A DNA stretch of 64,000 nt from Myxococcota bacterium (lineage in GTDB: Bacteria; Myxococcota_A; Bradymonadia; UBA7976; UBA1532), in assembly GCA_036337435.1 (NCBI GenBank), contig JAYZEG010000037.1:1-64000 (forward strand), in the 5' to 3' direction. Under the pieces are notes generated by a model. It was not told where the DNA came from. It saw only the letters and a list, made by a program, of their open reading frames with translations, and searched no databases. Both the position numbers and the translations under genes were made by a program. This document shows, piece after piece, positions 43,928-62,860 of this stretch. Within the stretch, counting starts at the first letter, position 1; every line of letters begins with the position of its first letter.

Positions 43928-46129
43928 TCATCGAATTTCCGTAACCGCCGTCGCTTCAATTATCAGCCACCCATTCTGAATTCGAGGCGGCGAGGGAAAA
44001 GTCGGCTGAATGGTCATGGTGTCAATGTCAGAATTGAGGGATGAAAAGGCGTCTGCTTCGACCTCAATTCCATCTAGATCCACCGTCAATAGCCCCGCGA
44101 CCGCCTCATTCAATTCAGGTCCGATTTGAGCTTGTAGGAGCGCGGAAAAGAGTGATGGATCGAGTGCCGGAAAATCCCCCCCCTCACTTAATAACTCAAA
44201 CCTGACGTCGGGAACTTCGTCGACAATACCTTCGATCTGGCCTGCTCCAAATCCAAGTCCAACACCGGCTCGTAAGCTCATGACATAGTGGTCGGGACGC
44301 TCATTGAATGGGTTTTGAACGAACAAATCGATTTCCCCAAATTGCAGTTCCATCAAATTCGGCGAACCTGGCTGCGCTGGTACAATAACGGGAGGGATGC
44401 GTGCATCCAGTGTCAGGCCGCTAATTTGCGGAAAGCCATCTGGAACAATATCAGAAAGATCGACGGTGAATGCACTTTGATGCCATGCAGACGACAGTAT
44501 ACTGTTGAAAAGTGAGAGTCGAATCGCCACAGAAATGCCTCGACTTGGAGGCCAAACGGGTTCGGCGTTCAGCGGAAAGTCTGGAATGCCTGGATGAGGG
44601 TGCGGCGCCTGGACAACCATCGGCTGACGCACAATTCCGCCCAGAATAAGTTCCATTTTGTCACGCCGGGCAAAACTTGGCTCCTGGGCATTTAGGGATA
44701 AATTGAGCTGAATGCCTGGCAACGGCGGATCGGGGCTCAGGTCCAGGGAAACGTCCCGAAGCGGTTCGATGACATCGTCGAGTCCCAATTCGATAAAATT
44801 GGGAAGTTCGTCGGCAACCAGGTCTCGGACAAGTTCGTCTGCGGCGGAATTTAAAACCCGGCGCGCTATGCTGCCAACCGTGTCAACGACTGCCTGTGCG
44901 GTTGAGTCGTTGAATTCGCCGCTGAGACTCTCGACAGCAAGGCCGAAATCATCCACGACCAACCCAGGGGTACCCCGGTCATTGATCTGCATCTCTGCCG
45001 AAGCAAAGCCAGCGACTGTCAGGATGACACGCCCAGCAAGGGAAAATGACTCTCCGCCCACATCGATAAAACCCTCAGTTTCAAAAGCCAGATTCTCTAA
45101 GCGAATAAAGATTTCAAACCCATTGTCGGTCAGGAGAATCGTGACATCGGGTATCCCCTGATCAACGTTGGTTATCCGCATCGAGAAGTCATCGTCGTCG
45201 GCAATTTGCGGATTGTCTAGGAGCGTCATTAAGTTTGAACGACTCAGCAACGCTTCAGCCGTACCCGCCAAGTCTGGAACAATCTGTAATCCATCGGGTC
45301 CAGGAGGATCTGGTGCTTCTTGACGATCGATCACAGCCTGATGAAAGCGCATGATGGCCACTCTATCCAAATCGATTTCTGAATCGTCCGCTGGAATGAC
45401 CGTAGGTGCCCATAAGACTTCTCTCACACTGCGAGTCGCCGGCCGACGAACACCATCGTCTGCGATCACGTCGATTCGGTTTAATCCAAATTCAGCTCTG
45501 AGCTCAGTCTCAAATTCACCCATTTCGTTGACCATGACAGGTTGGTCATTGATAAACACACGAATGGTTGGATCTGTGTCGGTTCGGCCACGCACGCGAA
45601 TGGATGGCTCCCCTGTAAGAATCGATGCACGGCTCGGTTCTAAAATCTCCAGACTGGGCGGTGCGTCATCGACGTAGAAGGACGCGCGGCCGCAAATATC
45701 CGGCGTCGCGCAAGCCCGAACTGCCCCTGCGCCTTCGAGTAAAAAGGTGATGGTCTCGTCATCTTCAATGTCTGCTTGACCCATTGGCTGGATATCCAGG
45801 CGGACGGGTGCATTCGCGATCACACGACCAATGCGATCGTAGACCACGTATTCAATGGTTGGCCGCTCGTTTCGACTGTAAATCCCACGTCTCGGACTGA
45901 GCTCAACATCAACATAAGCTGGAACCGCCGTCGGTGCAGCACTCATGTCGATTTGCTGGGGTCCAAGATCAGATGCTCCGACACCAAAATCAGTCAACTG
46001 AGTGCCGGAATCGGCCCCAGTGCCGTTGGACATATCGACGACATTCGAACCCATGGACGAGGAATCATCACACCCGACCAACGGGAGAAAAAGACCAAAA
46101 GCAGCGAGAAAAACGAGTCGAGTCATCAT
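43928..46129 (-). CDS. Large acidic lipoprotein with Ig-like domains and probable BPI/LBP-like C-terminal region
   Basis: LPLVGC lipobox; GGAGAG RBS; Ig-like segment with FGLNRI; LFNSILSSAWHQSAF; paralog of the adjacent gene. Confidence 0.65.
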   Translation of the reverse strand: MMTRLVFLAAFGLFLPLVGCDDSSSMGSNVVDMSNGTGADSGTQLTDFGVGASDLGPQQIDMSAAPTAVPAYVDVELSPRRGIYSRNERPTIEYVVYDRIGRVIANAPVRLDIQPMGQADIEDDETITFLLEGAGAVRACATPDICGRASFYVDDAPPSLEILEPSRASILTGEPSIRVRGRTDTDPTIRVFINDQPVMVNEMGEFETELRAEFGLNRIDVIADDGVRRPATRSVREVLWAPTVIPADDSEIDLDRVAIMRFHQAVIDRQEAPDPPGPDGLQIVPDLAGTAEALLSRSNLMTLLDNPQIADDDDFSMRITNVDQGIPDVTILLTDNGFEIFIRLENLAFETEGFIDVGGESFSLAGRVILTVAGFASAEMQINDRGTPGLVVDDFGLAVESLSGEFNDSTAQAVVDTVGSIARRVLNSAADELVRDLVADELPNFIELGLDDVIEPLRDVSLDLSPDPPLPGIQLNLSLNAQEPSFARRDKMELILGGIVRQPMVVQAPHPHPGIPDFPLNAEPVWPPSRGISVAIRLSLFNSILSSAWHQSAFTVDLSDIVPDGFPQISGLTLDARIPPVIVPAQPGSPNLMELQFGEIDLFVQNPFNERPDHYVMSLRAGVGLGFGAGQIEGIVDEVPDVRFELLSEGGDFPALDPSLFSALLQAQIGPELNEAVAGLLTVDLDGIEVEADAFSSLNSDIDTMTIQPTFPSPPRIQNGWLIIEATAVTEIR

Positions 46130-46130
46130 T

Positions 46131-48902
46131 CTACTCTCCAAAATTTCCGTCGAAAATCCACGCGGCAGGAACACCAAATAGGCGTGGTTCCCTCAAGCCC
46201 AGTGGAACGCCCGGAGGTAGGTCAAACTCCTGTAGGTCGTCGGGGATTACAAAGTCGGGTAATGGCAAGGTGGGCAATCCATCATTCAGTGCTTGGTCAA
46301 TGGTTTGCTGTATCACGCGCGTCAACGTATCCTCGAGTACTTGGCGTGCTCGATCCGGGATCTCAGCCCCGGCAAGACTGAGGTGAAACGCATCGATACG
46401 TACGCGCTGGAAAGCGATGTCACGCTCTCCCTGGATCTCGACCCCGGCTTCAATAATTGCAGCCAAGCGCACTCGTATGGGATCAACAAAGAAATCGGGA
46501 TGTACAACCCCCGCTGATAATGGACCCACCATCACCTTCACCGTCGATTCACCATCGACACCAATCACCCAAGGGGGTTGAGGAAAGCGGAGAAATACCT
46601 CTGTACCGTCGGGTAAATCTTGACCCAATCCGGCAACAAGCCCCCCCGCCTCAGCCTCGAAGTAGCCGCCCCGCCAGAGTCGGTACATAATTTGATTGAG
46701 AAGGCCAAGCTTGATAAGCGCACCGACAGACCGCCCGTCCGGTACAGCCGCAACCTCTTCCCCTGGAATCAACGGGACACCGATACCTGGGGCAGCGATC
46801 ACATCTGGCCCCGATACACCCGTGTTCACTCCAATGGTCGCTGAACCAGGAACGAAATCGAGGCGTCCTAGACTCGCATTGATGGAAAGGCGGAGATCGG
46901 GCCCGCCAGTTAAACTTGGTATGTCGAAACCCTGAGCCAACTCACCAATATCGACATTACTCAATAAGTCCGTCAGAACCCGATCAATGTTATCTGTGAG
47001 AAAATCTCGAATGGCGTCCGTGATGGTGTCTCTAATTAAGCCTTCGAACGCTTCAAACACCAATTCGAGCAAAAAACCAAGAATCCCGCTAAAGTCGGCA
47101 TCTAGATCGCCAACTCTCACCTCATTTAGGTTTCGCAATGTAATGTCGGGCTGGCCATTTCCGCGAAGGCCAACATCAAAGGTCATGTCAAGAGTGATGT
47201 GTTCCGCTCGCATCCGAACGCGGTTACCGAGGGTTCCGTTGAGCTTGGCATTTACGTTTTGCTCTCGGAATGCAACCCGGATGCGCATGCCCCGATCGAC
47301 AAGATTTAGCTCAAACAAGTTCGGTCCATTATTATTATACGACCGATATTCAACGCCTAAACGAAACAGACAAATTCCGAGGACTCGGGCGCGACATTCC
47401 GAGGGTACAAGTGGATTTTGGGCGGCCGCAGACCGATCGACCGTATCCTCGAGGCCTTGACTATTGATGACGCGTCGGAGGACATCAGCCAGACTTCGAA
47501 TCGGTGCGCTCGGCGCGCCATCGTCGAGGCTGCCCTGGCCGAGACGAAGCTGGAGTGCATCCAGGTGAGGTAAGTCGGCCGCAGCGAAACGATCCGAAGC
47601 GTAGTATGCGCAGAACGTAGACGTTTCATTCTCACCGTCGCTGGCAATGATGTCATGGACGTTGAGACCCCATTGAACTGGCACCTCAGCACTCCACCGG
47701 CCATCGTCTTGCAGGTTCGCTGCCACGCCATCCACGGTAAGACTTTCGACGCCCGCGATATCGGCGACCGTACCCGAAAGGCGATGAACACCACCAGGCG
47801 GAATCGGAATGACATCGCCCATTTCCGGTGAAACGCAGTCGACTCCGGGCCCGCCATAATCAACTAGAATTCGAATCTCTTCAGAGAGCTCACGTTCTTC
47901 CCAAGTCTCCCCCAACACGCGCACACTCAAGGTATACTCGCCTTCCTGAACACATTGAAACCGACCATCACCAAAGGTAGGTAGGGGTGGATCACTCGAG
48001 AATTCTACGGGTGCTCCGCTCACAGTGTTCCCGAACTGATCCGACACCTGAGGGATCAACTCCAAGACCGATCCAACTCGGTAGATGGGTCTTTCAGGAA
48101 ATCGTGTCACGCGTAGGCCAGCGGGAAGACCCGCTTTGACTTGTAACGACAAAGCGGGCGTGAACTCAACACCAGGTAATTCACATGCGACGCCAAATGT
48201 GCCCGCACCATCAACTCGAAAAGTCATGCCTCGCCGCTCTAAATTTCGCGGCGGTGGTGAAAATTGAACCTCGAAATTTTCATCCTCGGTTCGATTACCA
48301 AATTCGTCAAAGGACTCGCATTCGATATCAACTGTCTCCCCGGCATCAATGCTGGGTGAACTCATGCGAGTGACCGTACGCACCGGCCTCGCCGGCGTGA
48401 CCGTCCAAATCGCGGGCGTTGGATCCCTCAGACCCAGACTGTTCGCTGCACATACAACCGAGTAATCGCGAGCGATCCGACCGATCGCGCCGGCCTCGGT
48501 TCGCTCAAACCCAGTGTCTGGATAAATTTCGGGTCTTGCTCGAATCTCAGCAATCGGTTCACCCACTTGGTCGAGCACTTGGCAGGTAATTCGATTCTCA
48601 ATACCCGCCGCCGTGCGGCGTTCACCAACTCGCGTCTCAACAGCAAATGGGATCACCTCGAATTGGGCAGAATCTGGAGCCGCATCATCAACGATTGCCA
48701 TATCTTCAGGCAAAGAGAGGTCTGTCGTTGTGCCCAGATCGGCTGAGTCGGGGCCGAGATCATCGCGAGGCCCTGCATCCGTCTGAACAACCCCTGGCGG
48801 ACCGACCGATGCAACGGGTGCCTGCTGCTGGTCCTGACACGCCGTAAAAAATGTAAGTATAGGAATCATGATACGGCAAATGGAATACTTGTTAATGGAC
48901 AT
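46131..48902 (-). CDS. Large lipoprotein with Ig-like domains and probable BPI/LBP-like C-terminal region
   Basis: FFTAC lipobox; GGAGG RBS; WGLNVH; LLNQIMYRLWRGGYF. Confidence 0.65.
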   Translation of the reverse strand: MSINKYSICRIMIPILTFFTACQDQQQAPVASVGPPGVVQTDAGPRDDLGPDSADLGTTTDLSLPEDMAIVDDAAPDSAQFEVIPFAVETRVGERRTAAGIENRITCQVLDQVGEPIAEIRARPEIYPDTGFERTEAGAIGRIARDYSVVCAANSLGLRDPTPAIWTVTPARPVRTVTRMSSPSIDAGETVDIECESFDEFGNRTEDENFEVQFSPPPRNLERRGMTFRVDGAGTFGVACELPGVEFTPALSLQVKAGLPAGLRVTRFPERPIYRVGSVLELIPQVSDQFGNTVSGAPVEFSSDPPLPTFGDGRFQCVQEGEYTLSVRVLGETWEERELSEEIRILVDYGGPGVDCVSPEMGDVIPIPPGGVHRLSGTVADIAGVESLTVDGVAANLQDDGRWSAEVPVQWGLNVHDIIASDGENETSTFCAYYASDRFAAADLPHLDALQLRLGQGSLDDGAPSAPIRSLADVLRRVINSQGLEDTVDRSAAAQNPLVPSECRARVLGICLFRLGVEYRSYNNNGPNLFELNLVDRGMRIRVAFREQNVNAKLNGTLGNRVRMRAEHITLDMTFDVGLRGNGQPDITLRNLNEVRVGDLDADFSGILGFLLELVFEAFEGLIRDTITDAIRDFLTDNIDRVLTDLLSNVDIGELAQGFDIPSLTGGPDLRLSINASLGRLDFVPGSATIGVNTGVSGPDVIAAPGIGVPLIPGEEVAAVPDGRSVGALIKLGLLNQIMYRLWRGGYFEAEAGGLVAGLGQDLPDGTEVFLRFPQPPWVIGVDGESTVKVMVGPLSAGVVHPDFFVDPIRVRLAAIIEAGVEIQGERDIAFQRVRIDAFHLSLAGAEIPDRARQVLEDTLTRVIQQTIDQALNDGLPTLPLPDFVIPDDLQEFDLPPGVPLGLREPRLFGVPAAWIFDGNFGE

Positions 48903-49020
48903 TGGAACCCTCCGTATCGGCGACTCTATGGTCACTCAGAATGGTGGAACAGAGCAAGCAATTACAAATCGATGATCTCAGTTCTTGATTATCTAGGTCC
49001 CAAAAGCAGACAATCAGACC

Positions 49021-50934
49021 ATGAATGGAACCGTGAACAAGACAATTCCGCTGAGGGCAGGCATCCAAGGTCATCTGATGGTTTGGTTGACCATTGTCCC
49101 ATTGATTGCCTGCGGCGGTGATGAGTTGCCAAGTGTGGCAGACTTTGGGCGGCCAGACTTTCGAGTGGAATTCGACAGCAGCGGAAATAATCAAAGCCAA
49201 TGCGTTCAACAAACCGAGGTTTGTAATGGGCGCGACGACGACTGCGACGGTGCCATTGATGAGGAGCGGGACGTCCGCATTCAAGTTTTCGCAGATCCCG
49301 ACCACTGCGGTGCGTGTAATCGACGATGTGACGGGCCAAATGCTCGATTTGCCTGCCAGGTTGGTCAATGTGTGGTGGCAGCATGTGATCCAGGTTTTAT
49401 CGACTATAATGGTGAACCCGAGGATGGCTGTGAAGCGGACTGCGTCATCACGGCGGGCGGCCAAGAACTCTGTGATGACATCGATAACGATTGCGATGGC
49501 ACCATCGACGAGGACTTTGATCTTGAAAACGATCCGCAGAATTGTGGCGCGTGTCAGAGGGTCTGTAATGCCATCGCCAATGGCCTGAGTGGATGCGTAT
49601 CCGGGGGGTGCGAAATCGAACGCTGTGACCAGAATTGGCATGACTTGAATTCTGACATCAGCGATGGCTGCGAATACAGTTGTACGGAGCGGATTGGCAC
49701 CACGGCCAGTGAATTCTGTAATGGTCTTGATGACGATTGCGACGGACAGGTCGACGAGACGATGGGCATGCAACAACCGCCCATCCAATGCGGCATCGAA
49801 GGTGCCTGTCGATTCGACTGTGTATCGGAACAAGGCTGTGCGGATGATGAGATCTGCAATGATGGTCGAATTTGCGTACCTGCGGTTCCCGTCGAGATGA
49901 CCTGCGCCGACGATGGCGATTGCCAAGAGATTCACCCGGGCCTTGCCTGTATCTCGACAACCCGCAGACTGGGAAACGATAGAGTCACCGAACAGCGCTG
50001 TGTCGAGCGCTCGCACGAGCCAATGTGCGATGGAGCCCAAGGCTTCAGATGTATTTACTCGCTCGATTACCAACGGGCCGACGAGAGCGGGCGTTGCGAC
50101 GGTATCGACAATGATTGCGATGGCCGAACCGACGAAGATTTCATCGACGAGCTGTTCCTGGCCGACCGACAAACGCAGAGACCCTGCTCGTCCGGTCAGG
50201 GGGTTTGTCGACGAAATGGTGTTGTGACCTGTGGCCCCAACGGGGAACGCACCATTTGCAATGCCCCCATCGTGCCTGCGCAAACAAATTTGGACACGGA
50301 GTGCGACGCCATAGACCAAGATTGCGATGGTCTCGTTGACGAAGACTTCGACGATGCTGTGGTCGCCATAGACAACATAGAGATATTCGCCTACGAGGCC
50401 AGCCGTCCGGGCGCTTCGGCCGAACTCCGAGGGCTTGATCCAAATCCAAACGACGGCATCGAGACGTTTATTGAGTCCCGAGCATGTTCTCGACCTGGTG
50501 TGCTGCCTTGGGACGATGCCACCTGGAGCGAAGCGGCGGAGGCGTGCGCCCAAGCTGATGCGCGCCTTTGTACCGGTGATGAATTCGCCCGCGCTTGCGG
50601 CGGTGTTCAGACCCAACTTTACCCGTACGGAAATAGTTTCCGCTCGCTTCTCTGCAATGGCCAAACCTATGACACCGATGACGAACAGCCCGGTGTCCAA
50701 TCTCAGGCACTCGCTTGTGGTGCCATGGAAAGGTGCCAACGCGACGGTGTTTTTGACCTCTCGGGCAACCTCAAAGAATGGGTTATCGACAGCATCGGTA
50801 ACCTTCGGGCAGTCCGAGGCGGCAGCTATGCAACGGTTCTCGGTGGTGGTTTGGCATGCGATCAAGATGGAGATTGGAAAGACCGAAACTTCCACCACAG
50901 AAGCATCGGCTTCCGCTGCTGCCGCGACCGCTAG
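49021..50934 (+). CDS. Cys-rich lipoprotein with MopE-type repeats and C-terminal FGE-sulfatase (SUMF1)-like domain
   Basis: PLIAC lipobox; five C..xD.DCDG..DE repeats; two DP..CGAC repeats; YPYG, DLSGNLKEW, RGGSY, GFRCC. Confidence 0.85.
   Translation: MNGTVNKTIPLRAGIQGHLMVWLTIVPLIACGGDELPSVADFGRPDFRVEFDSSGNNQSQCVQQTEVCNGRDDDCDGAIDEERDVRIQVFADPDHCGACNRRCDGPNARFACQVGQCVVAACDPGFIDYNGEPEDGCEADCVITAGGQELCDDIDNDCDGTIDEDFDLENDPQNCGACQRVCNAIANGLSGCVSGGCEIERCDQNWHDLNSDISDGCEYSCTERIGTTASEFCNGLDDDCDGQVDETMGMQQPPIQCGIEGACRFDCVSEQGCADDEICNDGRICVPAVPVEMTCADDGDCQEIHPGLACISTTRRLGNDRVTEQRCVERSHEPMCDGAQGFRCIYSLDYQRADESGRCDGIDNDCDGRTDEDFIDELFLADRQTQRPCSSGQGVCRRNGVVTCGPNGERTICNAPIVPAQTNLDTECDAIDQDCDGLVDEDFDDAVVAIDNIEIFAYEASRPGASAELRGLDPNPNDGIETFIESRACSRPGVLPWDDATWSEAAEACAQADARLCTGDEFARACGGVQTQLYPYGNSFRSLLCNGQTYDTDDEQPGVQSQALACGAMERCQRDGVFDLSGNLKEWVIDSIGNLRAVRGGSYATVLGGGLACDQDGDWKDRNFHHRSIGFRCCRDR
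49195..50345 (+). repeat. Intragenic Cys/Asp-rich repeats (5 MopE-type, 2 DPxxCGAC)
   Basis: EVCNGRDDDCDGAIDE, ELCDDIDNDCDGTIDE, EFCNGLDDDCDGQVDE, GRCDGIDNDCDGRTDE, TECDAIDQDCDGLVDE. Confidence 0.85.
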
Positions 50935-50979
50935 CCGGCCATCGGCCTGACTGGATTCGAAAAACATAGCCCAGAAACA

Positions 50980-50996
50980 AGCGATATACGTGCCAA
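50980..50996 (-). promoter_or_regulatory. Possible sigma54 -24/-12 promoter
   Basis: Minus strand TTGGCACGTATATCGCT: GG-N10-GC spacing, one mismatch to TGGCACGNNNNTTGC. Confidence 0.35.
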
Positions 50997-51047
50997 TTTA
51001 GATTGAGCTCGCAAATCCACATCGACCAAGCAGAGTGAGTACTTTTT

Positions 51048-51364
51048 GGGGGGGCATGTCCACCCCATTGAAGGGGGACCGTAAACCGATTGTGCCGTAG
51101 AAAAGAGTCCCCCCGGCAAGTCAGATCGACTCGCCGAGGGGAAAAAGATGGCTCACAGGGCGTCGTTCGCAGCCCCCGCGACCCGCTCCAGTCGGCCGGG
51201 CAAACCTTCCGAAGCTGCACGAGACAGTTTGCCTCGCGCTGCAGGCCACAAAAGCGGGCAAGCTTCAGTGGCGATGGCCGATGCGACTCGGCCTGAAAAG
51301 CTAGATGGGCAATCTAGCCTCAACACAGATACACGTGAGTGCATCTACCAGGGAGTGGACCCCC
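51048..51364 (+). ncRNA. Candidate large structured non-coding RNA of unrecognised class
   Basis: 5'/3' closing stem, several internal helices, GUGA and UUCG loops, A-rich linkers, possible pseudoknot; no credible ORF. Confidence 0.6.
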
Positions 51365-51634
51365 AGCCACACACCAGAGGTATCCTGATCAAAAACCGGA
51401 CGTGGTCTGACGGAATTTCGGTGCGCTTGTATTTTTTTACCAATTTTAAAATCGCCGGTCAACTTATCCACACCAGTTATGCGTCTAATTATCGCGAGTA
51501 GGTGCTCTCACTTTGGACAGTGAATTAAACGTCGAAGGCGCCAGAAATTATTCGGATTTAATGAGTCGAGATACGACGACAGTTGAGAGAGTACGCGCAA
51601 TCACCTATTGTGGAGAGCCACGAGGAGAGACGTT

Positions 51635-53182
51635 ATGAAACCAACGGTGATTCTAAATCGATGCGCAGACTATGATACACAGCGGATTGAAGAACTGGTT
51701 TTCAAGGGTCTTGAGCGTCTCGACTTGTATCCTCGGGGGCGCACTCTAGTTAAGCCAAACTGTGTAACCAGCGGCCCATACTTTCCTCACGCACACACTC
51801 GAGTCGAATTTCTCGAAGGTGTACTACGCGCCATCGAGCGGCGTGCACCCGAGCCGTTGGATGAACTCGCTGTAGGCGAACGATGCGGCATTACAGTGCC
51901 GACTCGCTTCGCCTATAATGGGGCAAATTACTATCCACTTCGGAAACGAATTAAAGGACTCAAATTCTACCATTTTGAGGAGTGTCCGCAGGTCGAAATC
52001 CCCCTCTATCACGAGGGTCGATTGCGGGATTCATTTTTTACCCCTGAGCCCGTTGCACAGGCTGACTTCTTCGTAAATTGCCCGAAGTTTAAGGCTCACC
52101 CCTGGACGACGGTCACCTTTTCTATGAAGAACTATATTGGGATTCAAGACGACCGCCATCGTCTGTTGGACCATGATCATCGCCTCAATGAAAAAGTGTC
52201 CGACCTGCAGTATATCGTGCAACCGCAGTTTGTAGTGACCGATGGCATTATCGCCGGTGAGGGCCGTATGCTCACCCCAACCCCCTTCGATTTAGGTTTG
52301 GTCGCCATGGGAAACAATCAGGTCGCCTTCGATTCTGTATGTTGCCATATCATCGGTGTCGATCCCATGAGTGTTGAACACATTAGACTGGCCTATGAAA
52401 ATGGTTTCGGGCCCGTAGACCTCTCGGAGATCGACATTGTTGGCGACCTCAGCCTCGACGAAGCCAAAGAACGTGGTCAGGGATTCGAAGTCGGGCTGAT
52501 ACGGGTTGAAGACTACTTCAAGGGAACCAAAATAAGAGCCTACGGCGGCCGACCACCAAGTGATGGTGGCCATGATTATTGCTGGGGAGGCTGTCCTGGA
52601 GCCCTTGAAGAAGCCATTGAAATCATGCGCTTATATGATCAACAAACCGATGAAAAACTACCACCGATGCACGTGGTATTCGGAGAGTATGACAAACCCA
52701 TTCAACCAGGTCCGGGTGAGAAGATCATTTTTATAGGAGACTGCGCTAAATACTCTGGTCAACTGGGGGAGCAACTCGTTCAACTGGAGAGTGTGTACGT
52801 TGACCGGAGTCAAAAACAGCCCTTGGATGCGGAGGCTGACGATATTTTTATGAAAATGTGGTCGGTGCGACGAAAGATGGCCAAGCTCAAAAACCAAGAT
52901 TATATTCGCATCGCTGGATGTCCCGTCAGCGTTGCGGAGCAAACTTTAATTTTGATCCAATTGGGCGGTCTTAAAAGCCCCTACTTCGATCCGAAGCAAG
53001 TCGTGCCCTTCGTGAGTGCCTATTTATCCTCGCGTACTCGAACGGCGTTCTCTCGTCTCTTTGGGATCAAATACAATCAGCCAGGCCCAATGTTACGGGG
53101 TCGGGCACGCCCCAAACTCAACTTACCCCCACCCGGGGTGCCGACCCCTCTTGAATTAAAATCACTGCCGTCTAAAGGCTAG
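51635..53182 (+). CDS. DUF362 domain-containing protein (probable Fe-S)
   Basis: LVKPN, PKFKAH, SMKNYIG, DGIIAGEG, VAFDSV; GAGGAG RBS. Confidence 0.85.
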   Translation: MKPTVILNRCADYDTQRIEELVFKGLERLDLYPRGRTLVKPNCVTSGPYFPHAHTRVEFLEGVLRAIERRAPEPLDELAVGERCGITVPTRFAYNGANYYPLRKRIKGLKFYHFEECPQVEIPLYHEGRLRDSFFTPEPVAQADFFVNCPKFKAHPWTTVTFSMKNYIGIQDDRHRLLDHDHRLNEKVSDLQYIVQPQFVVTDGIIAGEGRMLTPTPFDLGLVAMGNNQVAFDSVCCHIIGVDPMSVEHIRLAYENGFGPVDLSEIDIVGDLSLDEAKERGQGFEVGLIRVEDYFKGTKIRAYGGRPPSDGGHDYCWGGCPGALEEAIEIMRLYDQQTDEKLPPMHVVFGEYDKPIQPGPGEKIIFIGDCAKYSGQLGEQLVQLESVYVDRSQKQPLDAEADDIFMKMWSVRRKMAKLKNQDYIRIAGCPVSVAEQTLILIQLGGLKSPYFDPKQVVPFVSAYLSSRTRTAFSRLFGIKYNQPGPMLRGRARPKLNLPPPGVPTPLELKSLPSKG

Positions 53183-58237: not shown

Positions 58238-61200
58238 TTAGAGTCCAAACGTAGATTTAAATTGCATCAATAAATTTGGGTCATTTGTTTTAACCCGACC
58301 ATCCGTAAACTCAGTGAAAGAGGGGACATACCCTTCACGCACAATTTTCGTAAATGTTTTCACATCGGTTTTCAAAACGCAGTCCGCATTTCCATCACTT
58401 GGTCGACCCGGCGTCGCTTCTACATGGTCTTCTTTTGCGCGAAGGGTCCACTTGCCATCGGACTTATCGCCCAAGCTAAAGTACCAAGTCGTCGGTTTTG
58501 AGAGGGCTTCTGGAACAAAGCGACGGGGCAGCTCCTCAAAAATCGCTTCGAGTTCGGATTGGCCACGCGCAGCCGTCTCGCCCGCCAGCCAAGGATACAC
58601 ATCTCCGTCTCGAAGAGCTCTGACCGCGAGGTGGAGAATCTCCGCAATTCGCGCGTACGTCTCGATCCGGTTCATCCCTTTCGTCTGCTCCTCGATAAAC
58701 GCATGATCAATCACCGGTCCAATCACTGCGGTCAACTTACGCTGAGTGGGTACTGCTGCCCCTTTCGGTAAGGCTCGATACGTCCCTCTTAAAAATAAGG
58801 GCAGTACAGACAACTGACTTTTCTGCTGTAGATAGCCTACCCCATGCTTAAATTCTTGAAGTTGGCCATCCGGTGAACGGGTGCCTTCGGGGAATACGAG
58901 GACGATCCGCCCGCGATTTAAAGCTGTTTCTGCATGACGTAGGCTCTTTTCCAAAGACCCACTTCGTTCAACTGGGATGAGGTTTGTAAATGGCTCAAAA
59001 AAGTCGCGTTTATACTGTTTGTCGAAGAAATAGTCACTGGCTGCAAGTGCAGATAGGTTCGGTGCATAATCGCCCAGTGCGTATTTGACCAACCCCATAT
59101 CGAGATGACTCGAATGGTTGCTAATCACCAAAACCTGGCTATTCCTTGGAATGTTTTCGGTTCCTTTTACCTGGACCTTAAACGCTTGGTCGTACAGTTT
59201 TTTCTGAGCCGAACCAAGAAGCTGTCGCCCGACGTCTGCCAATGCATCCGGCATTGGCCGTGGTTCTTGGGCATCGACGACGACGGTCGCTCTGCCAAAG
59301 TCTTTCGAGTCAACCAAGTGCGCTAATTCGCCAACGGTCGAACATGACATAAGACGCTCAGGATCGAGGCTGGTCTTCACCTTTTCCTCGATCAAAAGTC
59401 TCAATTCGACATACTGCAAGCTGCTGAGCCCCAAATCTTGGGTCAAGTGAGTCTCGGGCGTCACATCGACGGATTCGAGTCCTGCCAGAGCAGCAATGGC
59501 ACCGTAGAGCCAAGCTGGCTCGCGCCCGGCGGGGACAGACATGCCCTCACGCCTGGAACTTTTGCCGACGCTGACCAAACGAATGAGTTGTTCTCTCACA
59601 TCCGCCCGCTTAATTTTACGGGTCGCTGTCCTAGGCAGTTTCTCCGTCCAAAATCTCAGCGTGCGAATGCGCTGATGATCCGCGAGACCCATGCCCGTCT
59701 TTGTAAAGTGAGCTTTAATTTGAGCTTGATAATCAGCGGGTGGGTTCTCAACGGGCACGATTAAAGCACCGACCCTTTGGTCACCCTGTGGGTCAGGAAT
59801 GCCAACGATGCAAATTTCCTCGATCAAATCATGGTCACTGTAGACCGACTCAAGCTCATCAGGATAAACATTCTTACCACTGCTGGTCACGATCAATTCT
59901 TTACGTCGACCCACCAGCGTGAGCCGACCATCCTTGTCCAAACGCCCAAGATCGCCGGTGTGCAACCAACCCTCTTTAACCGTATTTCGTGTTGCCTCCG
60001 GGTCATTTAGGTATCCAGCCATGACGTTTGCGCCTCTGGCGACGACTTCCCCGACACCATCAGCATCTGGGTCGAGAACATGCAACTTAACGCCCGGCAA
60101 CCCTGTTCCTACACTGCCTGAGCCCTTTCGATCACCAGGACGGCGCACACTCAGGACGGGCGCGGCTTCGGTTAGCCCGTAGCCTTCTAGAAGCTCGAAA
60201 CCAAGACCTTCGAAAGCATTGAGAACAGGTTCGCTGAGTGCGGCCCCCCCACTGATCAAGTGTCGAATTTGGCCGCCCAGCATGCGATGAACTTCGCTAA
60301 ATGACATGGGTCCGAGATTGACCCCATATTGTTTCTTTAAAAATCGAGACAGCCGCAGCATAGCTGTAAAGGCGAGGTGAGCCGCCTCCCCTCGATCTCT
60401 CACTTCCGTCTCAATTCGACGATGCAAAACATCCCATAGTGCGGGCACGCCAATCAGTCCGGTGGGTCTAAAATCCGAGAGTGCTTCGCGTAAAAGCCCA
60501 CCCTCCAACTCATCGAGATACAAGACATGAGCACCTACACTCAGTGGCATAAGTAATCCGCAGCTGAACTCAAAGGTGTGAAATAACGGCAGGACGCTCA
60601 GAAAGCGGTCTTTATGGTCAACTCGAAACGTCCCATGAAGTGATGCGAGAAGCGCAGTAAAATTGCCGTGTGTCAGCATGACACCTTTTGGGTCGCCCGT
60701 CGTGCCGCTCGTAAAGAGCAAACTGGCAACGTCTTCACTTCGATCTCTGCACTCGATCTCAAGTACGGGCTCAGCATCAAACACGTCACCGACAGAGGCC
60801 ATTGGGCAACTCTGTTCGGGCAATCGGTCCTCATGATGAATTAATAGTTTAGACTGACACTTCGCTATAATTCGACCCAACTCCGCATCAGGCATCTCGA
60901 AATCGACCGGGACAGCGACCGCATCGGCTAAGAGAATCCCAAAGTAAATCATGGGCCAGGCCGGCTCGTTCTTACTCATCAAAACGATGGCGTCTCCCCG
61001 CCTGATCCCTTGGGTCTTCAGATAACCTGCGACTCGGCACGCAGCATCATACACTTCTCCAAAGGTATACGTTGATTCAACACCTTGTTCAGATGTGTAA
61101 AAACTAACCGCTTTGCGTTCTTTATGCGCGCGGCATGCTGTTCGGAACACCTCGACCAAATCACGCGCTTTTGCGACCTTGCGAACGGGCCTCATCCGGT

Positions 61201-62860
61201 CATCTAGTTCGCCGAACACCCATTTTTGAAGACCCTGCATGTGGACATCAATCCAGTAGTGGCGCCAATCGAGTTCGCACAAGCTAAACGAGAACTCACC
61301 TGCGTTGCCCTCCGGCAATCTGGTGCTCAAAGTTCGGATATTGCGTGTACTAAAGCAGGGATTATTCTCTTCGACGAACGGCGCGAAGAGATCAAGAATG
61401 GAATTACAGACGCCACTGGCTTTCTCCAATCCAGCCAGTGCGCCATCAAGTTGCTTGACCAAAGGTCGGGCGGGCCCCAGCCAGGCTTTAGGAATCATCT
61501 TGAGCGCAGCCCGAGTCGATTTTGTAATGCGATTTACCTGGGGTGCGCTGATCCGATTGTAGGTCTCTCGATCCACAGGGATGGAATCGAGGTTGCGCAT
61601 GAGATGACGTTTAAAGAGGTTCTTTTCATGCCGGTCATAATGACGCCTCCAGGCAAGATTGGTCATTTCAACAGCGCGTCGCATACGCAGGGGATTTGAA
61701 TCACCTGACGCCAGATGAAACACTTGCGAGGGGCCACCTGAAAGTAGGTCCGCGCCAGCCAGTATGGTGCCACGACACACATAATCGACGGGGACTAAAT
61801 CGAGAATATTATCCGGATTACACGGAATAAATCGATGTCCCTTATACATGATGTAAACAAAAGGTGCGCACGTATTGACACCCTCATTCCAACCTGAGAA
61901 CGGAAACTCAAGAGCACTCTCAACGATAGCTGGACGAACGATCGAGACGCGTACTCCCATTTCTGCCGCACGCTTTAGTGTGAGTTGTTCGCCAAGACTC
62001 TTTGTATACGTGTATGTATTGGTCCATCCCCATTGCTGGGCCCGCTCCATTCCCTCTCGGGTCAGTTCATCGTTTACCCAGCGGGTTTTGCGCGCTTCGA
62101 AGGCTGCCTGCAGTCGCTGCGGGTCTTCGTAGTCCAGTCCCTTGTCGGTCAAGCGTTTTTTGGCTTCGTCTAGGAAGCGACATTCGAGTGCTTGGGCATC
62201 GGCCCTGCGTCGGACCTCTTCGGCAAGAAACACTGCATCGGATAACTCACGTTCCGGATCAAACTCCCGGTCGTTAGGGGCATAACCGACAATGGGTCGA
62301 TCTTCGTCGATTGGCCCTGAGCGCTGTCCAACAACAAAACATGTGCTCATGTGAACGAGCGGGCAACCCGCATCTCTGGCAAATTCGACTTTGTGGGCAA
62401 CGCCCATGGAATTCACCATCAGAGCTTGGTCGAGAGGCGGATTAAAATTGACATTGCCTGCGCAATGCAAAATGAGATCGACGGGGTCGTTTTCTGTCAG
62501 TTCTCGATAGGCGCTCTCACTCAAGCCGAGGCGTTCGAGACTGATGTCGCCTTTCACCACATTGACAACATCGTCGCACCACGCCTTGAGCGCGCCTTTG
62601 CCAAGGGTCTTGGCGACTGCATCGAAGGGTTCAGATTTTGCGACGACTGCATCGAAACGCCGCCTGGCATTGTCATAATCGCGATTCGTTCGGACCAAGA
62701 CACTGACTCGACGCACCGAGGGCACGCGAGCTGCAAGCATCGCAAGTAAAACCTTGCCGACAAAGCCAGTCACCCCGGTAATAAAAATATGCTTACCAGA
62801 AAAACTGTCGAGGACATTGAGGGTTGCATTCATGCCTGGTGTGTCACTTTTACCCGCCAC
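58238..62860 (-). CDS. elbD: Multifunctional ether-lipid enzyme ElbD-like: fatty acyl reductase, acyl-CoA ligase, ACP, PlsC acyltransferase, plus SCP2-like domain
   Basis: TGVTGFVGK and YTYTK (reductase); FTSGTTGDPKG, GYGLTE, HTGDLG (adenylation); DLGLSSL (ACP); NHSSHLD, FPEGTRS (PlsC). Domain order as in M. xanthus ElbD. Confidence 0.85.
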   Translation of the reverse strand: MAGKSDTPGMNATLNVLDSFSGKHIFITGVTGFVGKVLLAMLAARVPSVRRVSVLVRTNRDYDNARRRFDAVVAKSEPFDAVAKTLGKGALKAWCDDVVNVVKGDISLERLGLSESAYRELTENDPVDLILHCAGNVNFNPPLDQALMVNSMGVAHKVEFARDAGCPLVHMSTCFVVGQRSGPIDEDRPIVGYAPNDREFDPERELSDAVFLAEEVRRRADAQALECRFLDEAKKRLTDKGLDYEDPQRLQAAFEARKTRWVNDELTREGMERAQQWGWTNTYTYTKSLGEQLTLKRAAEMGVRVSIVRPAIVESALEFPFSGWNEGVNTCAPFVYIMYKGHRFIPCNPDNILDLVPVDYVCRGTILAGADLLSGGPSQVFHLASGDSNPLRMRRAVEMTNLAWRRHYDRHEKNLFKRHLMRNLDSIPVDRETYNRISAPQVNRITKSTRAALKMIPKAWLGPARPLVKQLDGALAGLEKASGVCNSILDLFAPFVEENNPCFSTRNIRTLSTRLPEGNAGEFSFSLCELDWRHYWIDVHMQGLQKWVFGELDDRMRPVRKVAKARDLVEVFRTACRAHKERKAVSFYTSEQGVESTYTFGEVYDAACRVAGYLKTQGIRRGDAIVLMSKNEPAWPMIYFGILLADAVAVPVDFEMPDAELGRIIAKCQSKLLIHHEDRLPEQSCPMASVGDVFDAEPVLEIECRDRSEDVASLLFTSGTTGDPKGVMLTHGNFTALLASLHGTFRVDHKDRFLSVLPLFHTFEFSCGLLMPLSVGAHVLYLDELEGGLLREALSDFRPTGLIGVPALWDVLHRRIETEVRDRGEAAHLAFTAMLRLSRFLKKQYGVNLGPMSFSEVHRMLGGQIRHLISGGAALSEPVLNAFEGLGFELLEGYGLTEAAPVLSVRRPGDRKGSGSVGTGLPGVKLHVLDPDADGVGEVVARGANVMAGYLNDPEATRNTVKEGWLHTGDLGRLDKDGRLTLVGRRKELIVTSSGKNVYPDELESVYSDHDLIEEICIVGIPDPQGDQRVGALIVPVENPPADYQAQIKAHFTKTGMGLADHQRIRTLRFWTEKLPRTATRKIKRADVREQLIRLVSVGKSSRREGMSVPAGREPAWLYGAIAALAGLESVDVTPETHLTQDLGLSSLQYVELRLLIEEKVKTSLDPERLMSCSTVGELAHLVDSKDFGRATVVVDAQEPRPMPDALADVGRQLLGSAQKKLYDQAFKVQVKGTENIPRNSQVLVISNHSSHLDMGLVKYALGDYAPNLSALAASDYFFDKQYKRDFFEPFTNLIPVERSGSLEKSLRHAETALNRGRIVLVFPEGTRSPDGQLQEFKHGVGYLQQKSQLSVLPLFLRGTYRALPKGAAVPTQRKLTAVIGPVIDHAFIEEQTKGMNRIETYARIAEILHLAVRALRDGDVYPWLAGETAARGQSELEAIFEELPRRFVPEALSKPTTWYFSLGDKSDGKWTLRAKEDHVEATPGRPSDGNADCVLKTDVKTFTKIVREGYVPSFTEFTDGRVKTNDPNLLMQFKSTFGL

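Follow-up and report, generated by a model that had tools for sequence, protein, structure and literature searches.

A previously undescribed stand-alone small RNA (sRNA) gene probably lies on the minus strand, from about 51428 to 51100, in the genome of a marine Myxococcota lineage (assembly G000). Positions are those of the window, the whole stretch of 64,000 nt of DNA that was analysed. The locus has what is generally looked for in a stand-alone bacterial sRNA, namely a promoter, a terminator, no conserved open reading frame (ORF), covariation and contigs in RNA libraries. A preliminary description of this DNA had proposed a stand-alone structured noncoding RNA without an Rfam family, and this proposal is borne out by conservation in relatives and presence in RNA libraries. 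What is new is an sRNA family without Rfam match; multivalent hairpin-chain regulatory RNAs are known as a kind. If the assignment is true, a well-supported RNA family is added to a bacterial group in which, to our knowledge, no regulatory RNAs have been described. The features of the locus are as follows.

51635..53182, plus strand: DUF362 gene (Pfam PF04015, E 4.6e-35), the constant neighbour, divergent from the sRNA here.
51457..51462, minus strand: -35 box TTGACC, read from the sequence.
51434..51439, minus strand: -10 box TAAAAA with TGG before it (extended -10 type), likewise read from the sequence.
51100..51428, minus strand: predicted sRNA gene, about 330 nt, from promoter and terminator, minimum free energy (MFE) by strand, RNA contigs and consensus folds.
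51369..51426, minus strand: weakly supported 5′ domain, in which P1 (51426-51419/51376-51369) encloses P1a (51415-51404/51397-51383); RNAalifold on three sequences, one-sided (wobble) changes only.
51348..51366, minus strand: P2, CUGGGGG-UCCAC-UCCCUGG, arms 51366-51360/51354-51348; consensus fold.
51326..51347, minus strand: P3, loop UCAC; consensus fold.
51297..51321, minus strand: P4, with UGCCC pentaloop no. 1 at 51311-51307 (UGCCU in the metagenome locus L065); consensus fold.
51276..51293, minus strand: P5, GGCCGA-GUCGCA-UCGGCC; consensus fold, one compensated pair (G-C to A-U).
51245..51272, minus strand: P6, with UUGCCC loop no. 2 at 51261-51256; consensus fold.
51217..51239, minus strand: P7, the CTGCA-CGAG hairpin of the preliminary description; consensus fold, loop differing among relatives.
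51185..51215, minus strand: P8 (hairpin A), GCUUCGG-AA-GGUU-[UGCCC]-GGCC-GA-CUGGAGC, loop no. 3 at 51202-51198; covariance models R1 and R2.
51150..51184, minus strand: P9 (hairpin B); consensus fold, two-sided changes in 6 of 10 pairs between genera.
51100..51142, minus strand: intrinsic terminator, a 16-pair stem (51142-51108) followed by CUCUUUUC; terminator-like in the scan.
51048..51099, no strand: spacer 3′ of the terminator and outside the RNA, poorly conserved in G000, G002 and L065, with no RNA contig.
49021..50934, plus strand: gene with MopE motif and FGE-sulfatase domain (Pfam), convergent with the sRNA.

The promoter of the sRNA, TTGACC-N17-TAAAAA (51462-51434, minus strand), is of the sigma-70 type and would start the transcript near 51428, a predicted position that carries a margin of 5 nt on either side. 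A TACTTT hexamer had earlier been pointed out as a start signal; the promoter is found at the other side of the element. A consensus promoter scan picked TGGATA-16-TAAAAT (51470-51443) on the same strand instead, the TAAAAA box being missed because its final T is absent. G000 and G002 hardly differ in the block 51365-51480. Among the full homologues, 11 of 11 (G000 included) carry a -35 box of the form TTGACC, TTGCGA, TTGACG or TTGCAA at a spacing of 16-17 nt, and the -10 box in the other ten is A/T-rich (TATAAA, TAAAAA, CAATAT, CAGTAT or TAATTT). All 11 have both the promoter boxes and a U-run terminator on the sRNA strand. Immediately upstream of the -35 box on the minus strand comes a direct repeat with the pattern ATAAGT-N7-ATAAGT (51463-51490; CATAACT...GATAAGT in G000, also seen in G002 and L065), at which a transcription factor acting on the sRNA gene might bind.

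The terminator hairpin coincides with the inverted repeat noted earlier at 51110-51141. Its stem (51142-51108) contains two G-U pairs when read on the minus strand, which become A-C mismatches on the plus strand, and the terminator scan of the locus found no plus-strand terminator. The terminators are clearer in the homologues, for instance a 12-bp GC stem followed by U8 on the same strand in G001. The ORFs that overlap the sRNA are not conserved: a 63-aa minus-strand ORF meets a stop at codon 8 in L065, and a 117-aa plus-strand ORF is interrupted by a 1-nt indel between G000 and G002.

Folding also favours the minus strand. When compared with dinucleotide shuffles, the segment 51048-51364 folds at -136.5 kcal/mol (z -3.5) on the plus strand and at -160.2 kcal/mol (z -6.3) on the minus strand. 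All 6 homologues compared have a more stable fold on the minus-type strand, its MFE being 19-39 kcal/mol below that of the opposite strand, with z-scores of -4.8 to -9.4 versus -2.0 to -6.8; the z-scores of G001 are alike on the two strands (-5.3 versus -5.9), which counts against a clear call. G-U pairs make up 61/335 (~18%) and 24/184 (~13%) of the paired cells in the consensus folds and would be A-C on the other strand; these folds were themselves predicted on the minus-type strand, and the MFE comparison serves as the unbiased check. From the G-U pairs, promoters and terminators we infer that the minus strand is the one transcribed. The linkers of the sRNA count against this strand, being U-rich and A-poor (AT skew of about +0.3 on the plus strand), since unpaired stretches of most structured RNAs show the opposite trend.

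The transcript would fold into about ten consecutive hairpins and end at the intrinsic terminator (51142-51100). In the subgroup consensus folds it is a string of hairpins, P1/P1a and P2 to P9, followed by the terminator. The local inverted repeats recognized in the preliminary description do exist and find their places in this minus-strand model: 51158-51175 is the apex of P9, 51215-51244 corresponds to P7, 51276-51293 to P5, 51300-51318 to P4 and 51327-51346 to P3. The larger architecture built upon them does not survive the comparison. There is no 317-nt domain closed by a terminal stem; the fold consists of about ten independent hairpins plus the terminator. The supposed closing stem (51051-66/51351-64) can form 13/13 pairs in G000, 11/13 in G002 and 11/13 in L065 without any compensating change; its left arm comes only after the terminator and is covered by no RNA contig, and its right (GUCCAC) arm belongs to the loop and stem of P2. 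Similarly, the pseudoknot proposed between GCAAAC and GTTTGC keeps 6/6, 4/6 and 3/6 pairs and is not conserved, because the loop of P7 varies between relatives. Nothing points to a ribozyme or to a conformational switch.

The stems have changed in step in the relatives. P2 has one compensated pair, G-C being replaced by A-U in L065, in addition to wobble changes. Pairs changed on both sides number 5/112 in the G000 group of three sequences, 12/92 in the G003 group, 12/86 in genus g8 and 9/106 in genus g16. Hairpin A (P8) is the best-conserved element of the family. Its outer stem occurs as four sequences, GCUUCGG/CUGGAGC, GCUCCAA/UUGGAGC, GCCGUUG/CAACGGC and GUCGUC/GACGAC, according to lineage; pairing is kept throughout and 6 of the 7 pairs are changed on both sides in 11 sequences. 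The 3′ domain common to these 11 sequences has 92.9% of its cells paired, versus 80.0 ± 1.4 in shuffles, and 12 of its 21 pairs are changed on both sides; any of the five measures was reached by 0 of 500 shuffles, and slid controls were 25-58% paired. The alignment behind these figures was fitted to the covariance model, which favours the structure. The 5′ halves of the sRNA do not align between genera.

While the stems drift, one loop is retained. Three hairpins of the G000 sRNA share a UGCCC/UUGCCC loop, at 51311-51307, 51261-51256 and 51202-51198. In 12 RNAs, 46 of the 59 instances of [UC]GCC[CU] fall within loops of the MFE folds, and the loop consensus is U(32/46) U(45/46) G C C C(39/46) G(38/46), that is UUGCCCG; the UGCCC pentaloop can be closed by pairing of the flanking U with G (or A). 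The strict UGCCC occurs 3, 3, 3, 3, 3, 3, 4, 4, 4, 3, 3 and 7 times in the 12 RNAs, the 7 copies belonging to a fourth-genus candidate, and in genus g8 the motif is also present at the apex of the terminator. Nowhere else in the 4.38-Mb assembly do two such hairpins lie within 400 nt of each other on the same strand. A scan for UUGCCCR hairpins outside long ORFs was uninformative, as 95.6% of the GC-rich genome, the sRNA included, is hidden under spurious long ORFs. Because the loops are fixed while the stems covary freely, the loops appear to be the working parts of the sRNA. This role of the UGCCC loops as functional sites is one that we infer from their pattern of conservation.

The sRNA is single-copy in the G000 assembly. 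BLAST against 61 relatives matched only within the genus, with a full-length match of 80% in one sister species and cores of 27-43 nt in two others, whose loci proved on reading to contain entire, though diverged, RNA genes. Hits of 23-36 nt (E 0.005-0.01) in G006, G011 and G031 were taken as chance, model R2 giving no match there. Scanning 185,579 species genomes with the pattern returned 43 loci, 3 of them real, and the scan of metagenome contigs returned 11 loci, 3 of them real by model R1 and one of these identical to G002. The covariance model R1, which describes the 3′ domain, matches 4 of the 28 family genomes, all within the genus. In regions upstream of DUF362 orthologues, weaker R1 matches (17.7-22.2 bits) accompanied by the same loop-bearing hairpins brought in two more genera, and a candidate in a fourth genus (G017) was seen by eye. 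The retrained model R2 finds one copy each in 9 of the 28 family genomes (3 of 16 genera); beyond this set, the homologues are the one by-eye candidate and two metagenome contigs. R2 had no match among 85 genomes from elsewhere in the class, and in a phylum sample of 151 genomes it matched 2, both inside the family and none outside; the absence outside the family is weak because only 33-150 first-look candidates per genome were scored.

In 20 RNA-type runs, drawn from 10 studies, 5-17% of the words sampled from a 1401-nt stretch around the locus were present, and contigs of four of these 20 runs were compared with it. Seawater metatranscriptome contigs from three studies match with 0 differences: 261 nt = 51151-51411, 258 nt = 51150-51407 and 231 nt = 51189-51419. 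All three match over their whole length with no loose ends, and together they cover 51150-51419. In the same three runs (X2, X3 and X8) the flanking genes have no contig cover, which is no proof that they are silent. Contigs are silent on strand, level and true ends, and carry-over of DNA into RNA libraries is possible. Three more contigs match hairpin A alone (51173/51181-51215, 3 differences) and then diverge, which fits expressed versions of the sRNA in relatives. In run X1, contigs lie on the start of DUF362 and the region 5′ of it (51578-51816 and 51837-51987; 3 differences in 239 nt) and none on the sRNA, again no proof that the sRNA is silent; a near relative seems to transcribe DUF362 from upstream of 51578. 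The sRNA is thereby visible in ocean metatranscriptomes although its hosts are uncultured.

The exact ends of the sRNA are estimates from the promoter and terminator signals. At the 5′ side the RNA contigs end at 51407-51419, slightly inside the predicted start. At the other side, the contigs of two independent studies stop at 51150/51151, where P9 ends and with 8 nt still to go to the terminator stem; either processing of the 3′ end or a break in the assembly at the hairpin could explain this, and the mature 3′ end is possibly at about 51150. The preliminary description had set the limits at 51048 and 51364, and the greater part of this interval (51100-51364) does lie inside the RNA; 51048-51099 falls outside it, and the 5′ domain at 51365-51428 had been left out.

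Known RNA families give no account of the element. At gathering thresholds, Rfam 15 had 0 matches in the whole window, and at E<=10 the region 50900-51650 gave only blv_FSE, at 15.2 bits versus a threshold of 34, a chance match. Searches of four homologous loci yielded 6 sub-threshold matches, all of them sRNA terminators, at the L003 terminator and on the same strand. The Rfam check called for at the outset was thus run without a family match, and the homologues, the covariation, the folding better than shuffles and the contigs in RNA libraries were all found. The view that the element is not a tRNA, tmRNA, RNase P, SRP or 6S RNA also stands: ARAGORN detects no tRNA or tmRNA in the window, and in sister genomes tmRNA, RNase P, SRP and 6S RNA sit at other loci. 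6S RNA (RF00013) matches other contigs of G001 (45.5 bits, cut-off 46.4) and G003 (51.1 bits) and nothing at the locus; RNase P RNA (RF00010) lies elsewhere in G001-G003 (271-293 bits), tmRNA (RF00023) elsewhere in G001 and G002 (169-171 bits), and SRP RNA (RF00169) elsewhere in 4 of 4 genomes. The G000 assembly itself has 29 tRNA genes and no RNase P or 6S match, in line with its completeness of 87%. The sRNA resembles 6S, RNase P, tmRNA and SRP RNA in having one copy per genome and in assembling from community RNA while neighbouring mRNAs do not; 6S RNA is a rod with a central bubble, unlike the beads-on-a-string fold found here. A retron ncRNA (msr-msd) was rejected, there being no reverse transcriptase or mobile-element gene adjacent. 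Searches of open-access full texts and bioRxiv preprints turned up nothing, among the matches listed, on such an RNA in this lineage.

Three other explanations of the locus have to be weighed against an autonomous minus-strand gene. The plus-strand RNA of about 317 nt (51048-51364) with a terminal stem, an H-type pseudoknot and a possible conformational switch, for which A runs and GNRA/UUCG loops had been cited, draws on the fact that the plus strand also folds better than its shuffles, on the 11-13 of 13 closing pairs retained in three relatives and on unpaired stretches that are A-rich on that strand. However, the minus strand is the more stable in every homologue compared and alone accommodates the G-U pairs, the promoters and terminators lie on it in every homologue with no plus-strand terminator found, the pseudoknot is broken in relatives, and the RNA contigs leave out 51048-51149 and reach 51419. 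We regard the plus-strand RNA as very improbable; the case illustrates that the wrong strand can be assigned when hairpin-rich elements are read from DNA alone. Still less credible is the absence of any dedicated function, in which a GC-rich intergenic stretch would carry chance hairpins and the terminators of its neighbours. GC-rich DNA does fold well on either strand, yet chance hairpins would have to coexist with cross-genus covariation, an invariant loop motif, a conserved promoter and discrete contigs in RNA libraries of three studies.

The third explanation takes the element as a cis-acting leader, riboswitch or attenuator of DUF362(-dinB), as the preliminary description had also considered, or as a divergent-promoter element mattering only for DUF362. 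Genes near the sRNA encode an FGE-sulfatase-domain protein, DUF362, DinB and a CAP-domain protein; the FGE-sulfatase-domain gene and DUF362 flank it in six loci of the genus, and DUF362 adjoins it in 12 of 12 loci examined from four genera, which speaks for a cis role. Furthermore, the sRNA is upstream of DUF362 and co-directional in G003, in the metagenome locus L055 and in the G017 candidate, where its terminator is placed about 80 nt before the DUF362 start codon. Nevertheless, the sRNA is divergent from DUF362, hence on the opposite strand, in 8 of the 9 R2-positive genomes, G003 being the one co-directional case, and it has a promoter and terminator of its own. What is flipped is the RNA alone, promoter and terminator included; the unit is therefore not a leader but an autonomous gene. 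The RNA contigs end short of DUF362, and run X1 covers DUF362 without the sRNA. DUF362 orthologues are present in 17 of the 28 family genomes at 65-98% identity, and those of five other genera (L072, L074, L076-L078 and L080) have no such element upstream. A cis leader or riboswitch is accordingly considered quite unlikely, though less so than the plus-strand RNA.

Within the reading as an autonomous gene, the sRNA is most likely a trans-acting regulator that works via its UGCCC loops, as a protein decoy or as a base-pairing regulator. It would act in trans by presenting a partner with the same short loop several times over, with the three UUGCCCG loops (UGCCC closed by U-G or U-A) as the functional sites. 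Since no partner was found, both the trans action and the role of the loops are put conditionally. The sRNA could plausibly be a decoy, or sponge, for a sequence-specific RNA-binding protein, as CsrB/RsmZ are for CsrA, although we hold this reading only tentatively. Sponges of the CsrB/RsmZ type carry many GGA (ANGGA) motifs in hairpin loops and bind and titrate CsrA/RsmA. CsrB, RsmY and RsmZ resemble the sRNA in having their own promoter and intrinsic terminator, a length of a few hundred nucleotides and a chain of hairpins with one short loop motif, whose copy number varies by lineage and whose loops stay constant as stems drift. Unlike them, the sRNA has UUGCCCG in place of GGA/ANGGA, and only in 3-7 copies; so few copies of a motif of 5-7 nt count against a sponge. 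A CsrA sponge acting by GGA (ANGGA) loops was rejected, the repeated motif being UUGCCCG and no Rfam Csr/Rsm model matching. The decoy is favoured because its anatomy matches the CsrB/RsmZ signature and because GGGCA, the complement of the loop, is not enriched either near starts or elsewhere in the one incomplete genome scanned.

Alternatively, the C-rich UGCCC loops may be multiple seeds that kiss GGGCA sites in mRNAs in the manner of RNAIII, RsaE and sX13, a possibility to which we give limited credence. Staphylococcus aureus RNAIII and RsaE and Xanthomonas sX13 likewise expose several C-rich hairpin loops in one RNA, RNAIII also being a large multi-hairpin RNA. The loops here are exposed, C-rich and invariant, the sRNA has its own promoter and terminator, and a U-rich stretch ahead of the terminator, as found in many chaperone-dependent sRNAs, occurs in group A and G001. 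On contig C26, an AAGGA-N-ATG start is preceded, at a distance of about 20 nt, by a near-complement, GACCGGGCAAACC. The loops differ from those RNAs in reading UGCCC versus UCCC/CCCC, the lineage is unrelated, no sequence or model match was obtained, and the complement GGGCA is not a Shine-Dalgarno (SD) sequence nor is it enriched near starts. GGGCA occurs at -30 to +15 of 47 of 1096 SD-supported starts, versus 41-52 in three control windows, a count from one incomplete genome with crude gene starts that still permits specific targets. The 13-mer near-complements of the hairpin-A apex number 8 versus about 5 expected, which is about chance; no conserved complement was seen in the DUF362 leaders inspected by eye, and a seed of 5-7 nt is very short. 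Some function other than a protein decoy or base pairing is conceivable, with about the same modest weight as base pairing.

Taking the decoy reading further, the sRNA might be the titrating component of an as yet undescribed system of post-transcriptional control in an uncultured marine Myxococcota family, its loops serving as decoys for an RNA-binding protein, enzyme or toxin that reads a similar loop. This extension is speculative and rather doubtful; it would parallel Csr/Rsm in function with a different motif and a different protein. The 7-nt form UUGCCCR presumably resembles a tRNA anticodon loop carrying GCC; tRNA-Gly(GCC) is absent from the assembly, in which 29 tRNAs were found. The constant UUGCCCG loop on drifting stems offers a precise handle that could lead to a new RNA-binding regulator.

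Some observations concern the neighbouring genes. The DUF362 protein has no PDB relative and a weak NCBIfam match, its Atlas clusters are all labelled DUF362, and its C-terminal half has no Pfam family. Selenocysteine in some DUF362 orthologues was considered and rejected, the in-frame stops being natural ends. In L076 and L077 (genus g14), the place that the sRNA has in other genera, here about 500-600 nt upstream of the DUF362 orthologue, is taken by GC-rich hairpins, none of them a UGCCC hairpin, together with a sequence on the opposite strand that resembles the T-arm of a tRNA. A 691-aa minus-strand ORF without Pfam match (48892-50967) overlaps the MopE/FGE-sulfatase gene and is most likely a spurious shadow ORF of this GC-rich gene. 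Farther away on the minus strand, the regions 43928-48935 and 58238-62860 contain three large ORFs (749, 934 and 1540 aa); for those of 749 and 934 aa, Pfam gives only weak Glucodextran_B-like matches below its cut-off.
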